DNA of 64,000 nucleotides, taken from the NCBI GenBank assembly GCA_054600435.1, contig BAAIJX010000021.1, positions 124,001 through 188,000 on the forward strand. The letters are read 5' to 3'. This document shows positions 1 through 62,643 of the stretch, in pieces. The notes beneath the pieces are model-generated. The model saw only the letters and a program-made list of their open reading frames with translations. It was not told the DNA's origin and searched no databases. The stretch's first letter is position 1, and the number at the start of each line of letters is the position of its first letter. A program made the position numbers and the translations under genes. The stretch is from Neophaeotheca triangularis (Eukaryota).

Positions 1-1312
1 GCCGTCCTCGTTGATAGCGGCCAGCTGCTCGACGACGTAGTTATGATACCGGTTGAACATGATCAACAGACATCCAACGCCAGGAGGAAAACTCAAAAGG
101 CGGGTCTCCGAGAAGCAATCCGGCTTGATCTTGCCGTCTTTGAAAGTTCGCATCTTTTGCTGCTCGCTCCAATTGCTACCGTACAGGGGAGCGAGGTCGA
201 GATATGACGATGTTGTCGACATGCGGTAGTCGGTGTGACTTGTCCTGAAGCAATCGTGGATGATGATAGAGGCAAGATTGAAAAGCATGCTGGAGATTCT
301 GTTGGGGTGTAATTCGGGCTTCTTTCTTGCCAGAAGTGTATCAAACAATACTGCAGGGTCTGGTAGCGATCCGGGCTGCATGGTCTTCGGTGCTACAGTT
401 CTGGCGTACGGCATATCTGCTGCCCCCAGGCTTGGGTTGACGAAACTGTTTCCTCTACCATCCGGATGACGGAATTCGAATTCTGGTGTCATCAAAACCT
501 GAGGAGGGTGATCGAGATCGTTCCAAAGAGCCGTCAAAAAGCTGTCTGTAATCTTCTTGCTGGCAAGATTGTCGGGTAACTTGGCGGCGGCTTGAATCAG
601 ATACTCCATCTTGTACTCGCGATCGTTCATTGGTAGTCCAAGCTTCATGTTGACGCCAGTCGACACCACGTCTTTGACTGACTTGAAACCGAGTATTCGA
701 GCATCTCGTAGCACATCGCGGATATCGTAGTCGAATTCGTCGTCAGAGCTTTGCTCAAGCGTCGTCCCGTTACCAGTCTCTTTGGGTAAGGGTGCCTTTA
801 TGGCCTTGAGGAGGGTTCGCATCTGCTCGAGTGATGCTCCCGCCTTTCGACGCAACAGTGTAAGATGGGAACTTGGCTCTGGCTCTGAAGGAATCTGGAA
901 CCCATTGGCGTACGGACTGGGAGTGCCTGGCTGAGAGATGTTTTTAACAAACTCCCCTGCTCCCTGGCGTATACTGTCAAGCATTGAAAGGTCGTCCTTC
1001 TTCTCGGCGGGTTTAACGCCATTAACCTCCAGGGACTTCATCTTGTACCTACTATAAAAACGTCAGTGGTTGGGCGCTGAAGACACTCCGCAACTTTTAC
1101 AATAGCTGTTGGATGCTCATTGCTCTCCGCCATTTTGAGGGAGACGTTCCAGTCCGGGCACGCCGACTCCTGAATCGCTCCAGCAGGCCGATGGAGCGTG
1201 GTCTTGAGTGGCCGTCTGTTGCGCTTAAGCTTCTTATCGATTTTCCAAGACCCGAGGAGACCAATGGGTTTTCTTCTACGCTGTCGGAAACCGCCATATC
1301 TTCATGAGACAT
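1..1312 (-). CDS. Ppo / linoleate diol synthase-type fatty acid dioxygenase (heme peroxidase domain); 5' part only, runs off the window start
   Basis: Manual minus-strand translation from 1041 down to 1 is open: ...LWNDLDHPP...HPDGRGNS...LGAADMPYART...LPDPAVLFDTLLAR...HPNRISSMLFNLASIIIHDCFRT...SSYLDLAPLYGSN...DGKIKPDCFSETRL...LLIMFNRYHNYVVEQLAAINEDG, typical of fungal Ppo/LDS. A probable first exon 1312-1101 joins in frame via a GTAAAA...CTGAC...TAG intron. Missing from the ORF track because it has no stop in the window. Confidence 0.9.
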
Positions 1313-6300: not shown

Positions 6301-7004
6301 ATTGGTACCAAGTTTGACTTTCCGGAGTTCGTCAAAAGCAGCGAATGACTGCGTTGCCTCGGCAGACAAGCTCTACAGAGTGATTGCGCACAAGAGCGTG
6401 CGCATGTCTGCCTCTCGGGTGTCTATGCAGATCGCCGCCTTGCTCACTCACCTTCACCTGCACTTCGTGCGGTCTAGACGGGTCTCTCGCTGTTTCTTGC
6501 ATGAGGTGCGCGAAAGCCGTGATTAAGGTTCCTTGTGAGTTGCTAAGATAAACTCCAGATCTGGGGTATCTGTGGGGACTAGCGACGGTATCATCGTATC
6601 ACGGTATCTTGTGGTATCCGCCAGAGCTCGCATGGTTTACAAGCAATACCTAGTCGATACGCTGCGGGAATGTCACCAACCATCCGTTAGTTGACAGGCA
6701 TACCGCAGCTAGATGTGATGAGTGTGCGGGTTAGCTGAAGCATGCCCGCAATATGCGCCTTGGTCCTGTGGAGCCCCTCGACGGCCCCAGGCTCGTATGC
6801 TGAAGCCGGGTCCCATCATCTGATCAGTCGAGCCAGCACATACCATACCGATACTGGAATGAGAATGCAGACCTTGCCCCGAGTTCTATAGAAAGGACGT
6901 TTCCTCCCCTCGCCGGCTCGAGAGAGAATCAGTAGAAGCCTCTTGCACAGTCCTAGCCCCTCCCCCTTTACCTCAAGCCATCTCCTCCATCCCGCTCCTG
7001 CTCA

Positions 7005-8806
7005 ATGGCGGAAAAATACACCGTCACCAACACGCTCGAGGCGCCCGTGTTGTCAAAGAATGAAGCCGTCCACCTCGAACGAACCCTCTCCGAACAGTCT
7101 GAAGCCATCAACGATGCTCGCATCGCGGCCTTTACGGAGAAAGAGCAGCGCAGGATCATCCGCAAGATCGACTTTCGCCTTGTCCCAACGCTCGGGTTCA
7201 TGTACTGCGTCAGCCTGATGGATCGTACCAACCTTGGTATCGCCGTCGTCGGTGGCATGGGATACGACCTGGCTCTTGTAGGCGCTCGCTACAGCATCAT
7301 CGTGCTCCTCTTTTTCATCACCTACGTTGCACTGCAGCCTCCAGCTACCGTCATCCTGCGCAAAGTCGGACCCAAAGTTTTCCTCCCGACCATCACTGTA
7401 CTATGGGGTATTGTGATGGTCGGCTTCGGCTTCGTGAAGGAATGGACGACACTCCTCCCGCTCCGTCTTCTTCTCGGCATCTTTGAAGCTGGTGAGTTCA
7501 TAATTGCTCCTCTCCAACAGACCATTCGCTTACACTATTCCCCTAGGGTTCTTCCCGGGATGCGCCTTCCTCCTTTCTACATGGTACCCGCGCTACGAAC
7601 TACAGAAGCGGAACGCTGTGTTCTACTTGATAGGGTCCATGTCGTCAGCATTCTCTGGTATACTGGGGTTCGGTCTAACGAAGATGAATGGTCTCGGTGA
7701 CCTTGGCCCAGCCTACGGGCAACACTATGGTCCTACAGAGCTTGACCCTACCGCTGAGAGCGGAATCATGGATGGCATTGCTGGATGGCGATGGATGTAA
7801 GTTTGACCAAGGACGTCCGAACACTTCTTCCAGACGCTAACAACGTCCAGCTTCATTATGCAAGGCCTCATTACCGTTGCGGTGGGCGTGGTTGGTGCCT
7901 TCTTCATCGTTGACTTCCCCGAGAACGCAGCCAAGAAGACCACAGCTCTATCGATGGCTTTCCTCACTCCAGAAGAGGCCGATTTCGTTGTCGCTCGCAT
8001 TGAGAAAGACCGCCACGACGCCATTGCCGAACCCTTTAATCTGAGGCGCTACCTGGCCGGTGGGCTCGATCTCAAGATCCTCGGGTTCGCCATGCTCTTC
8101 ATGCTGACCACCACCACCACCTATGCCATTGCGTATGCCGCCCCGTTCCCAAAACTCTCATCATGAAGACGCTAACGTGAAGATTGCAGATACTTTTTGC
8201 CAATCATCCTCAAGGACGGCATGGGCTTCTCGACCGCCATGGCACAATGCCTCATCGCCCCTCCGTACGTCTTCGCCGCCATTGTCATGTTCGCATGTGC
8301 CTGGGTGGGTGACAAGTACCACGTCCGTGGGCCCATCGTCATCTTCAACGCGCTTCTCGGTGTCGTCGGACTTGCTCTCCTTGGCTTTTGTGAAAACAAT
8401 GCTGCCCGGTACATCGGAGTCTTTTTGGCTACCACCAGCGCCAACGCAAACGTTCCTGCAGTCCTCACCTACCAGGCCAACAACATCCGTGGCCAGTGGA
8501 AACGTGCTCTGTAAGTACTCGTTGACCCCTCGCTTGACCACCGTGAGCGATCACTAACAACCCTCGTTAAGTGCATCAGCGACCCTCGTTGGAGCAGGCG
8601 GTATTGGTGGTATCATTGGCGGTACAGTCTTCAGGGAGGAGGACAAGCCTAACTACGTGCCCGGTGTCATCGCTACTTTGCTCGCTTGCGTTTTGACAGT
8701 TGTCATCACCCTTCTGTTGACGCTTAAATTTCATCGGGCGAACAAGAGGGCCGCAGCTGGTGGTAAGATCATTGAAGGCCTTGAAGGATTCAGGTACACC
8801 TTGTAG
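7005..8806 (+). CDS. MFS transporter, anion:cation symporter family (allantoate/nicotinate/phthalate permease-like)
   Basis: [47 protein letters not shown] and C-terminal GFRYTL*. Introns about 7492-7546, 7797-7850, 8133-8189 and 8511-8571. Confidence 0.93.
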
Positions 8807-9083
8807 ATAGTCGGGAATATTGAAGTTTCGCGGTACACTGTCATTAAAAATCGTACCTTCCGCTGCCTCTTTAGACTGACATATCGTAGATGGAACAATG
8901 TCAACTTGTAGCGACCATTATCTTCATTTCAGGGGTACTTACCTGTTCGGCCTCCCCAGTCACATGCAGGACTGCATGCGTTTTTTGCTGCCCATGCTCA
9001 TCGCCGGCACTAACTAAAAAGGGGCAGCTACCTTCCAGTCTTTAGTATACCGAACCACCGCACTGCAGACATTACTGCCTTCA

Positions 9084-9298
9084 GGATTCTTGGTGTAGTG
9101 GAGCACAGCTCGTTAATACACTCGACGGGGGGCACCCCGGTAACCACACCTCACCCTCCACTGGCCCCAAGCGCCATTCTTCCCGATGCTTAGCCGTCAA
9201 AGTGAGGCCCTTAGCGGCCAGTGCGCGCGTGCACTTTGGGTTACAGTGAGTAGTGCTACCGCAACGAGCAGGCCTTGGTTCGATCCCAAGAGAGTCCA
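9084..9298 (+). tRNA. Atypical tRNA (AAT anticodon, nominally Ile) with a 145-nt intron (9119-9263)
   Basis: Acceptor GGATTCT/AGAGTCC+A; D stem GTGT/GCAC; anticodon stem GCTCG/CGAGC with loop TT-AAT-A^A; variable AGGC; T arm CTTGG-TTCGATC-CCAAG; followed by T-tract terminators (9303-9315). Confidence 0.8.
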
Positions 9299-9511
9299 AT
9301 TCTTTTTGCCTTTTTGATGTTGGTTAATCAACTTGATGCCCAGTACGGCTCCTCGAGCAAGCGCCGACTAGAGGCAGGCACTTTGGCTCTCGAGAATGCA
9401 TAGTAAGTGAGTAGGACCGTAGAAAAGAGGCAAATCCTGCACATGTTCGGAAAGTCTGGGACAAACTTGAGATACATTCCTTCGCCTTCACGCTCCCTCT
9501 ATACTACATAT

Positions 9512-10326
9512 CTACAAAGTGTCGGAGAGCAGCTTGTTCATGCGGGCCATCTTGGCGGAGACGGAAAGGTCGATGGTACGGTCGCCAATCTCGACAATGA
9601 GACCACCACGGATATCCGGGTTGACCTGGTTATGATTAGCATTAGGACTTCTCTTTTGTCCAACGTGGTCACGGAGCGCGACGTGAATGGTGTAGACAAA
9701 CCTTTGGCACAACCTTCAACTTGTTTCCCTGTCCAACGTATTGGCTCTTGCTAACGGCAGTCTCCAATTGCCTAACCGTCTTCGCATCCAGAGGCGCAGC
9801 AGAAGTGATTGTCATCTCGACCTCGCCCCTGGAGGCACCCATCAAAGCCTCAAACTTGTCGCATACACCCTCAAGGACACTGAGGCGGTTGTTCTCGGCC
9901 AGGGTGTCGAGGAAGTTCTTGACGGTGCCCTCCTTGTCGGTGCCGCCAATGCTCTTCTGCAATTCGGCGACAATCTGCTTCTTGTCGTCCACGCTGAGCG
10001 TCGGGGCCTTGAGGATGGTGTTGAGGCGAGCGTCCTGCTTGAAGGTGTTGGCCAAAGAAGTCAGGGAGCGGGCGACGTTGTCGAGGGATTGCTGCTTGGC
10101 GGCCGCGGTGTACTATTGCGCGGACATGTTAGCCCTATAAGTATCCTTTGCGCAATCCTCTTCCGAGTCTGCGTACCAGGGCGCTGGCGTAGGTGCCATC
10201 GACACCGAACAATGGGATCGGGGGCTTGGTGTTGGCAGCGGCCTCGGCGTAGCCTCTGATGGCGGTGGTCTGAAAACGGGGAGCGGCCACACGGGCGCCC
10301 CTGACGGCAGCACGGCTGGCGAACAT
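9512..10326 (-). CDS. ATP5: Mitochondrial ATP synthase OSCP subunit
   Basis: MFASRAAV...PPIPLFGVDGTYASAL|YTAA...NFLDTLAENNRL...VNPDIRGGLIVEIGDRTIDLSVSAKMARMNKLLSDTL. Introns 10176-10113 and 9701-9626. Confidence 0.97.
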
Positions 10327-37270: not shown

Positions 37271-38542
37271 TAGCAGTGAAATCACAAGTCAAGTGTCAGG
37301 ATTGCTGGTTAACTTTGCGATTTATGATGCTCTCAGAAACCGCGACAACTTTTTTAGACCTGAGCTTGTGTCCGTGGTCGGAAGCAAATACTGTCACAAT
37401 GTGGTGTAGAGCTCTCGGTTCTCGCCTGACACAAGACCTGAAGACGAGAGCCTGGCCAACAGCAAGCTTCGCGCGGCAAAGGGCTGTGGAGGGCCCAAAA
37501 GCAGGCACTTCCAGGTCACATCCCAGCAAACTCAGTGACCAGCATTTGCACTGAATATATCCTCCAGGAAGATGTTGCCTCTCCGGTATCCAAAGACTTG
37601 CTAGCTTTCTCAAATTCCTTCGACTCTTCAACAAAAGTATGTAGGCAGCTATGGTTTTTCCCTCCCATCACAGCCCAACGGGCATAGAGGAACGATTAGG
37701 AATATAGCGCCCAGCGAATGCACCACAACGGCCGAGTTCACGAAGAACTACAAGACCGCGTAAAGTGCACCGCATCTTGCTCTCAGATCTGTCGACCGGA
37801 AATCGGCTCCATAGGATATAGGTGCGGGAGACTCCTTGATAGTGCGTCGAACTGTCGCAGCTCTCAACCATTGACCTGCGAGGCAGGAATGGGAGAGCTG
37901 GACACAGATCTGTGTTTTGCAGGAGAGAGAAGGAAAAGTCGAGATCAGCTTTGAGGTTCGAAAGTTTTTGGGGTTGCTTCGGTCGCCAAGACTGATGCCA
38001 CGCTAGTCCTCATGGGGGCTGTCACCGCGGCATGACTGCTATAGGGTAGGATGCAGCCGACGCTAGCGAATGGATGTCTGTACCATTGACAGCTGCAGCC
38101 GACTTGGGTTCAAAACCCATTACTACCTAGGTAGTATAGTCGAATAAAAACACGCATATCAATGGCACGAGTATGTGTGCTCAATGTCTTCAGACTAGCC
38201 CGATTGCTCATTGATCGTGTCTCCGTCATGATGAAGTTGTACGGAATACAGTATATGCTTCTTGCTCTATTATTACAGGCCCTCTCCACCTTGCTTGACG
38301 TTCAGCCGAGGTCCGTTTAGCTCGACATATAATGTGTATCTACTTTTACTGCTGGGACATATATCGAGCTCTCGGCAATGTTGTTGTACAACAATCAACT
38401 ACATAATCCTTCCAATGCTCGTGTAGGCCAACTTACTCATCATATTGAACCACGAAACTTGTCATAGACCTCACGCGACAAGCGCTTCCCTTTGCAATCC
38501 GTTGCATGTGTGCTCCTGCCGGCCATCCGCATTGCTACCAGG

Positions 38543-62555: not shown

Positions 62556-62643
62556 CTCTCCATCTGGGAATCGAACCCAGGTCTCCCGCGCTTGACATGT
62601 ATTAGATGACAAGCGGAAATCATGACCACTAGACCAATGAAGA
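62556..62643 (-). tRNA. tRNA-Asp(GTC) with a 16-nt intron (62591-62606)
   Basis: Acceptor TCTTCAT/ATGGAGA+G73; anticodon arm TCCGC-TTGTCA^C-GCGGG; T arm CTGGG-TTCGATT-CCCAG; downstream T6 terminator. Confidence 0.95.

Follow-up and report, generated by a model that had tools for sequence, protein, structure and literature searches.

The 64-kb stretch of DNA analysed here (the window) carries, at 9084–9298 on the forward strand, a complete tRNA-type gene that was recovered at identical coordinates by direct sequence reading and by ARAGORN with introns allowed (up to 300 nt permitted). Its cloverleaf, promoter boxes, terminator and non-isoleucine body are more than a chance arrangement. It is most likely a nuclear tRNA gene, with a D loop and an intron that both depart in length from the textbook form. 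Our preferred reading, held tentatively, is that of an orphan tRNA gene, restricted to its lineage and weakly constrained, whose product would read isoleucine codons if processed canonically. Such a tRNA would probably be a spare, poorly used one, distinct from the working tRNA-Ile of the cell.

Two 35-nt exons (9084–9118 and 9264–9298) are separated by a 145-nt insert in the anticodon loop, which canonical placement bounds at 9119–9263, and together give a spliced body of 70 nt. Removal of the insert yields a cloverleaf with stems of 7, 4, 5 and 5 bp and a 7-nt anticodon loop, in which 21/21 stem pairs are kept across all four stems. The acceptor stem (GGATTCT/AGAGTCC, 9084–9090 with 9291–9297) contains the wobble U4·G69, with G69 at 9294 and U70 at 9295 on its 3′ strand, and U8 and G9 lie between its 5′ strand and the D arm (9093–9106). 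This arm consists of the stem GTGT/GCAC (9093–9096 with 9103–9106), which contains U13·G22, and the 6-nt loop AGTGGA (9097–9102). A26 connects it to the anticodon stem GCTCG/CGAGC (9108–9112 with 9265–9269). In canonical-cut numbering the 5′ exon ends with U32 U33 A34 A35 U36 A37 (to 9118), and the candidate anticodon AAT then falls at 9115–9117, which holds for a cut one base 3′ of the anticodon. The 3′ exon begins with A38 (9264) and continues through a 4-nt variable loop, AGGC (9270–9273), and the T arm CTTGG-TTCGATC-CCAAG (9274–9290) to the discriminator A73 (9298). Bases of the tertiary fold are present by reading (U8, A14, G18–G19, G53:C61 and the T-loop TTCGA), and a G15:C48 pair is possible. 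At 6 nt the D loop is below the at least 7 nt (positions 14–21) expected of a eukaryotic nuclear tRNA gene and one base under the shortest among the Aspergillus niger families that were parsed; a D stem shortened to 3 bp around a loop of 8 nt is possible as an alternative.

Type 2 promoters of RNA polymerase III are marked by consensus A and B boxes. Here, an A box (TGGTGTAGTGG, 9091–9101) was read directly and a B box (GGTTCGATCCC, 9277–9287) was found by motif scan; the B box motif GGTTCGANNCC has two matches in the 64-kb window, this gene and a tRNA-Asp gene. Two T5 runs at 9303–9307 and 9311–9315 form a predicted RNA polymerase III terminator, and sequence reading of the insert at 9119–9263 found no run of four or more T. 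A TATA at 9046–9049 lies at −38, the tRNA-Asp gene having its own TATA at about −55, and the trailer AATTCTTTTT is the same in both genes. The sequence-only reading had listed a spliced body of about 70 nt, the AGTGGA loop, U32-U33, AGGC, U4-G69, paired stems, boxes and terminator, and each of these was seen on re-reading.

The tRNA-Asp(GTC) gene (62556–62643, reverse strand) is itself ordinary and contains an intron of 16 nt, canonically placed. It is followed by a trailer and terminator, AATTCTTTTTT, similar to those of the gene at 9084–9298. Default ARAGORN mislabelled it as 'tRNA-???' with a 4-base anticodon, and the call was correct once introns were allowed.

The gene at 9084–9298 scored 112.3 in ARAGORN in its native form and 120.0 in its spliced forms, compared to 110.2 for the tRNA-Asp(GTC) gene. 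Cloverleaves can nevertheless arise by chance, of the sort that ARAGORN yields once long introns are permitted. The A. niger study dropped 14 ARAGORN models with introns longer than 100 nt, its authors knowing of no longer fungal tRNA intron (PMC6108506). Shuffled sequence also yields calls, with five obtained from 150 dinucleotide-preserving shuffles of the whole window and long-intron calls at a rate of about 0.5 per Mb. In contrast to the native 112.3 and spliced 120.0, the best of the five reached 101.8, and calls at the gene's score were seen in 0/150 shuffled windows. The A box, B box and terminator also accompany the cloverleaf. A chance origin was rejected as far as the shuffle test allows, and we regard it as extremely improbable. 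The gene at 9084–9298 was not reported by a default ARAGORN run on the window, and Rfam on the unspliced DNA gave no RF00005 match there, either at the gathering threshold or at E up to 10. Both misses are expected because of the 145-nt insert.

The dependence of the anticodon on the cut site was examined by excising the insert at all eight placements (k0–k7) that leave seven bases between the anticodon stem strands, each being scored with ARAGORN. Placements k2–k7 all scored 120.0, with the anticodons CGC, AGC, AAC, AAT, AAT and AAT in that order. Placements k0 and k1 gave CGC with C33 and the lower scores 112.4 and 114.7. An NGC anticodon is thus obtained at the non-canonical placements k0–k3 only, and AAT at k5–k7 only. 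ARAGORN labels the gene tRNA-Ala(cgc), with the insert at 9115–9259 and CGC at 9260–9262; this label is an arbitrary pick because six placements tie at 120.0. According to the available portions of PMC4090602 and PMC13079951, a single nucleotide separates the anticodon from the intron on its 3′ side in eukaryotic tRNA genes, and the endonuclease measures its distance from the body of the tRNA. The canonical placement fits in that it leaves a 7-nt anticodon loop, and the sequence is compatible with other sites. The isoleucine anticodon AAT named in the sequence-only reading therefore stands if the cut is canonical, an assumption that we accept as the fungal default, and is not open to direct reading given the tie.

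A cloverleaf-constrained fold lengthened the anticodon stem by U32–A38 and U33–A9263 and left the anticodon unpaired; it contained no anticodon–intron helix of the usual kind. CGC at 9260–9262 paired locally with GUG at 9246–9248 in this fold. By inspection, a wobble between U32 and the third-last intron base, G(−3), is possible, and no bulge-helix-bulge motif was seen at ARAGORN's boundaries.

We propose that a genuine tRNA-type gene, nuclear and present in one copy, occupies 9084–9298 and carries its RNA polymerase III promoter internally. Handled like known fungal pre-tRNAs, its precursor would be cut a single nucleotide 3′ of the anticodon by the endonuclease, which takes the distance from the tRNA body, and the product would be a 70-nt tRNA with the loop UUAAUAA, anticodon AAU and A73. 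A34 would be deaminated to I34, and the spliced tRNA, with a body of no standard family, would read isoleucine codons by virtue of its anticodon. The available portion of PMC9976931 assigns isoleucine identity to the anticodon and the discriminator base and counts I34 among the determinants in yeast. Four steps of this proposal are inferences: transcription of the gene, cutting at these sites, deamination of A34 and charging of the product by IleRS.

The body was compared with the published A. niger tRNA table (PMC6108506 Table S1), all identities being counted by eye. A. niger is a reasonable yardstick because the window's tRNA-Asp is identical to its A. niger counterpart at 63/72 positions (~88%, by eye) and because Afu_309, an Rfam sRNA described from Aspergillus fumigatus, has a full-length match at 37637–37928 on the reverse strand (142.7 bits, E 1e-38), which points to a host resembling Aspergillus. 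Ten of the 13 A. niger Ile models in that table (PMC6108506) are of one type: 74 nt, intronless, with D loop AGTTGGTTA, anticodon loop CTAATAA and variable loop AAGTC. Shared with this tRNA-Ile(AAU) are the anticodon AAT (if splicing is canonical), A37, A38 and A73. By eye, the gene at 9084–9298 departs from the type in every arm. All stems differ. The A. niger tRNA is 74 nt long and intronless, compared to a 70-nt product and a 145-nt insert here; the D loops measure 9 and 6 nt, respectively, the variable loops 5 and 4 nt, and position 32 is C in A. niger and U here. The earlier judgement that the body is unlike an ordinary fungal tRNA-Ile(AAT), for which a longer D loop, C32 and a variable loop of 5 nt were named, agrees with this A. 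niger type.

By-eye identity of the body to other A. niger tRNAs was ~62% for Gly-GCC, 64% for Ala-CGC, 65% for Val-AAC and 62% for Val-CAC. Values of ~62–65% are what unrelated tRNAs reach. The T stem CTTGG and the D stem GTGT/GCAC were absent from the A. niger tRNAs parsed by eye, and the acceptor 3′ strand GAGTCC with A73 is common to the Ala-CGC models Ala4 and Ala12 (by eye). A likeness to tRNA-Gly or tRNA-Asp architecture had also been put forward; it extends to U32-U33 and the 4-nt variable loop and stops there.

At ~65% identity the gene still keeps 21/21 pairs, the tertiary bases, the boxes and the terminator, which argues for past constraint, since a member of a standard family that decayed freely to 65% identity would have had its stems broken. 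A cloverleaf kept despite a divergent body is, we suggest, the strongest argument for function. This is in keeping with the earlier suggestion of selection on shape, in that intact stems, boxes and a terminator on a sequence unlike the standard families argue for past selection. Weighing most against function are a D loop of 6 nt, an insert of this length, the absence of an anticodon–intron helix and the 2/35 changes found in the 5′ exon in one haplotype of X2, a second strain.

By its body the gene lies outside the ordinary tRNA-Ile(AAT) family and groups with anticodon/body-conflict and anticodon-shift tRNAs, except for the donor. It shares the mismatch between anticodon and body with the anticodon-shift tRNAs in the available portion of PMC3923123 and with the tRNAscan-SE 2.0 isotype/anticodon conflicts in that of PMC8450103. 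Shifted tRNAs stay near their donor family, whereas the gene at 9084–9298 is without a donor, its best by-eye match being A. niger Val-AAC (~65%). An anticodon-shifted tRNA, as proposed in the sequence-only reading, is not supported by the A. niger families compared, among which no donor was found at identities of ~62–65%. A change from Val(AAC) to Ile(AAT) would take one base because A73 and A35 are shared; both are common to Val, Ile and Met in the available portion of PMC9976931. A. niger tRNAIle6 (PMC6108506 Table S1) resembles the gene in being a singleton whose loop reads TTAAT..., whose intron is predicted and whose body is non-Ile. It differs in its 9-nt intron and its body (Lys-like by eye) and is no homologue, and it indicates that odd tRNA singletons occur in related genomes.

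Homologues were sought in a metagenome scan with a 21-base word covering the variable loop and T arm. The scan returned three loci, all with prokaryote- or phage-type tRNAs and encoded CCA: two (L001 and L003) carry the same Met-CAT, and the third (L002) carries an Ile-GAT in a cluster of three tRNAs. As a candidate relative, the L002 Ile-GAT shares the D stem and differs in the acceptor and anticodon arms, at ~59% identity by eye including the 21 forced bases; it was rejected as a chance match. No fungal homologue was found in the metagenome scan with the 21-base word or in the 64-kb window. The L002 cluster (310–466, reverse strand) comprises three adjacent CCA-encoding tRNA genes, Met-CAT twice and Ile-GAT, which resemble those of phages or prokaryotes and have no relation to the fungal gene. 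C32-C33 replaces the usual U33 in its Ile-GAT.

The 145-nt insert exceeds the range of ~10–100 nt quoted for tRNA introns in the available portion of PMC13079951. Fungal tRNA introns above 100 nt were not found in our literature search, within cited papers whose supplements could hold such lengths. A 113-nt intron is accepted in tRNA-Tyr-GTA-1-9, a tRNA-Tyr gene of Drosophila (PMC8450103, available portion), which would share a canonical-position intron of more than 100 nt in a eukaryote if 9084–9298 is cut canonically. That animal gene has a normal Tyr body and an intron that is expressed and conserved, whereas 9084–9298 is known from sequence alone. The insert folds no better than shuffles (z −0.85 on the forward and −0.89 on the reverse strand), and the whole gene gave z −1.59. 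Rfam at E up to 10 returned no family in the insert besides Gl_U4 (15.4 bits, E 3.6), a chance match. The insert ends bear no terminal inverted repeats or target-site duplication, only short weak repeats, and the 64-kb window holds no second copy. Complementary matches of the insert within the window span at most 11 bases (E ~1.7 or worse).

A spliceosome-type GT/GC...AG interruption was also tried and rejected; 205 excisions gave 15 tRNA calls, the best at 108.6 compared to 120.0. Interruptions of this general kind were seen by eye in several A. niger tRNA genes (PMC6108506 Table S1), where they are ~53–64 nt long, start with GTAAG, contain a CTAAC/CTAAT-like box and end with AG. Their positions are non-canonical, in the D loop in tRNA-Asn(GTT) and tRNA-Pro(TGG) and in the anticodon stem in tRNA-Trp, and the interrupted tRNAs stand under wrong names in the table (Phe, SeC, Asp6, Ala18/19 and Pseudo). 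In appearance these interruptions are introns of the spliceosomal type that lie in tRNA genes. Our literature search found no description of GT...AG interruptions in Aspergillus tRNA genes.

Contigs of strain X2 cover the whole gene region, partly as two haplotypes. In one haplotype the 35-nt 5′ exon is changed at two forward-strand positions, A>G at 9086 and A>T at 9102. Position 9102, T in the haplotype that carries 9086 G, is the last D-loop base, the A21 position, which is nearly invariant in tRNAs. Position 9086 is acceptor position 3, where A>G keeps pairing (A-U to G·U) and makes G3:U70, a pair that is absent from the window allele (A3-U70) and present in one X2 haplotype only. G3:U70 is the only eukaryotic alanine determinant listed in the available portion of PMC9976931. 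The other X2 haplotype has three differences on 9023–9181, of which the one located (9068) is upstream, so that at most two lie in the gene. A single X2 contig covers 9152–9700 and differs at 9187, 9190 and 9259, all inside the insert, with 0 differences in the 3′ exon; 9187 U>C turns a predicted U·G into C-G in the constrained fold.

Overall, the gene has 3–5 differences from X2 in 215 nt and no indel. The insert accounts for three in 145 nt, compared to ~5.5–7% in the flanks. The upstream flank has 14–20 substitutions and 5–7 indel positions in 264 nt and the downstream flank nine substitutions in 156 nt, giving 23–29 substitutions in 420 nt, with several indels. Fisher tests of gene against flanks gave p 0.002–0.10, depending on which counts were paired, and p 0.11 for the insert alone. 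The gene is somewhat less diverged than its flanks, which is at most a hint of constraint. At 8781–9181, X2 is represented by two contig versions of ~62–71x each, compared to ~97–107x in single-version parts, and the doubled contigs suggest heterozygosity, a hybrid or a duplication in X2.

A close rival stands near the orphan reading and has an appreciable chance of being correct. A 145-bp insertion may have interrupted the anticodon loop of a tRNA gene, possibly a tRNA-Ala, which would now be dead and drifting; AAT would then have arisen accidentally from the bases with which the insert begins. An insert beyond the quoted fungal tRNA intron limit, a constrained fold from which the anticodon–intron helix is absent, an insert fold that matches shuffles (z −0.85), a D loop of 6 nt and the two changes in the 35-nt 5′ exon of one X2 haplotype all point this way. 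So does alanine, in three respects: non-canonical cuts give CGC or AGC, both Ala, at equal score; G3:U70 occurs in one X2 haplotype; and the acceptor 3′ strand GAGTCC with A73 is common to A. niger Ala4 and Ala12 (by eye). However, these alanine pointers are post hoc and singly weak. Drift is also hard to square with 21 stem pairs, boxes and a terminator that are intact though the body is only ~64% like A. niger Ala-CGC (by eye), with a gene free of indels between X2 flanks that have several, or with an insert that has neither a target-site duplication nor terminal repeats and no second copy in the window.

The same alanine features could instead belong to a working tRNA-Ala (CGC or AGC) with its intron at the non-canonical position 33/34 or 34/35, which we consider highly unlikely. 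It would agree with ARAGORN's call, with the pairing of CGC 9260–9262 to GUG 9246–9248 in the constrained fold and with the X2 allele, in which the tRNA-Ala identity pair G3:U70 (PMC9976931, available portion) is shared. The window allele, in contrast, has A3-U70 and so is without the alanine determinant, and an NGC anticodon needs a non-canonical cut. No bulge-helix-bulge was found by inspection, ARAGORN picks one of several placements that score alike, and our literature search found non-canonical nuclear tRNA introns in a red alga and none in fungi, within the available portions of the sources. Alternatively, the tRNA body may be mainly a vehicle, from which RNA polymerase III and the tRNA splicing enzymes would free the 145-nt insert as a stable small RNA. 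The three insert differences in 145 nt, compared to ~5.5–7% in the X2 flanks, and the conversion of a predicted U·G to C-G by 9187 U>C are consistent with this. Free yeast tRNA introns (fitRNAs) offer a parallel for a possible role of a released intron, acting on mRNAs and in one case being circularised by Trl1 (PMC13079951, available portion), and tRNA intronic circular RNAs are described in flies in the available portion of PMC4536317. The yeast fitRNAs are short, however (~10–100 nt), in comparison to a 145-nt insert known only as sequence. The insert fold (z −0.85), the lack of an Rfam family at E up to 10 besides the chance match at E 3.6, the p 0.11 of the insert against the flanks and the complementary matches of at most 11 bases in the window (E ~1.7 or worse) all count against such a role, which we consider very unlikely. 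The earlier proposal of a scaffold kept for its intron likewise gains no structural support, given the intron fold (z −0.85) and the absence of an Rfam match.

If the gene is canonically spliced and expressed, it would have the longest fungal tRNA intron reported and would be an isoleucine reader on a foreign body. Charged with alanine in the G3:U70 allele, it would be a polymorphic Ile-to-Ala mistranslator, a combination that is very unlikely on present evidence. A mistranslator of this kind would be raw material for codon reassignment; one allele bears the alanine mark, and codon reassignments are thought to start so. Should the orphan gene be used at all, fungal tRNA splicing would accept more than the ~100 nt quoted as an upper limit, and the gene would provide a natural anticodon on a body of another family or of none. 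Should it be unused, it would be another odd singleton that tRNA finders flag or miss. What it chiefly teaches would in that case be practical, in that default ARAGORN and Rfam miss the gene and ARAGORN with introns calls it Ala by an arbitrary tie.

Two genes flank 9084–9298, each with its 3′ end towards it: an MFS transporter gene on the forward strand (Pfam MFS_1 at 6957–7700 and 8176–8514) and an ATP synthase OSCP gene on the reverse strand (ATP synthase subunit 5-like; Pfam OSCP at 9669–10112). At 8957–8986 on the forward strand, ~100 nt upstream of the tRNA gene and downstream of the MFS gene, a short hairpin that contains GC precedes a T6 run. Contigs of the RNA runs X3 and X4, and of run X8 (kind not stated), cover 8700–8842 and 9455–9627 and leave the tRNA gene between them uncovered. 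The contigs of all three runs have poly(A) at ~9455–9457, and all depart from the genome at 9627 with one shared continuation. The segment 9455–9627 on the reverse strand holds the OSCP mRNA's 3′ end, with the poly(A) site near 9455, and its last intron boundary. The OSCP transcript has matches of at least 99% in aquatic and marine metatranscriptomes.
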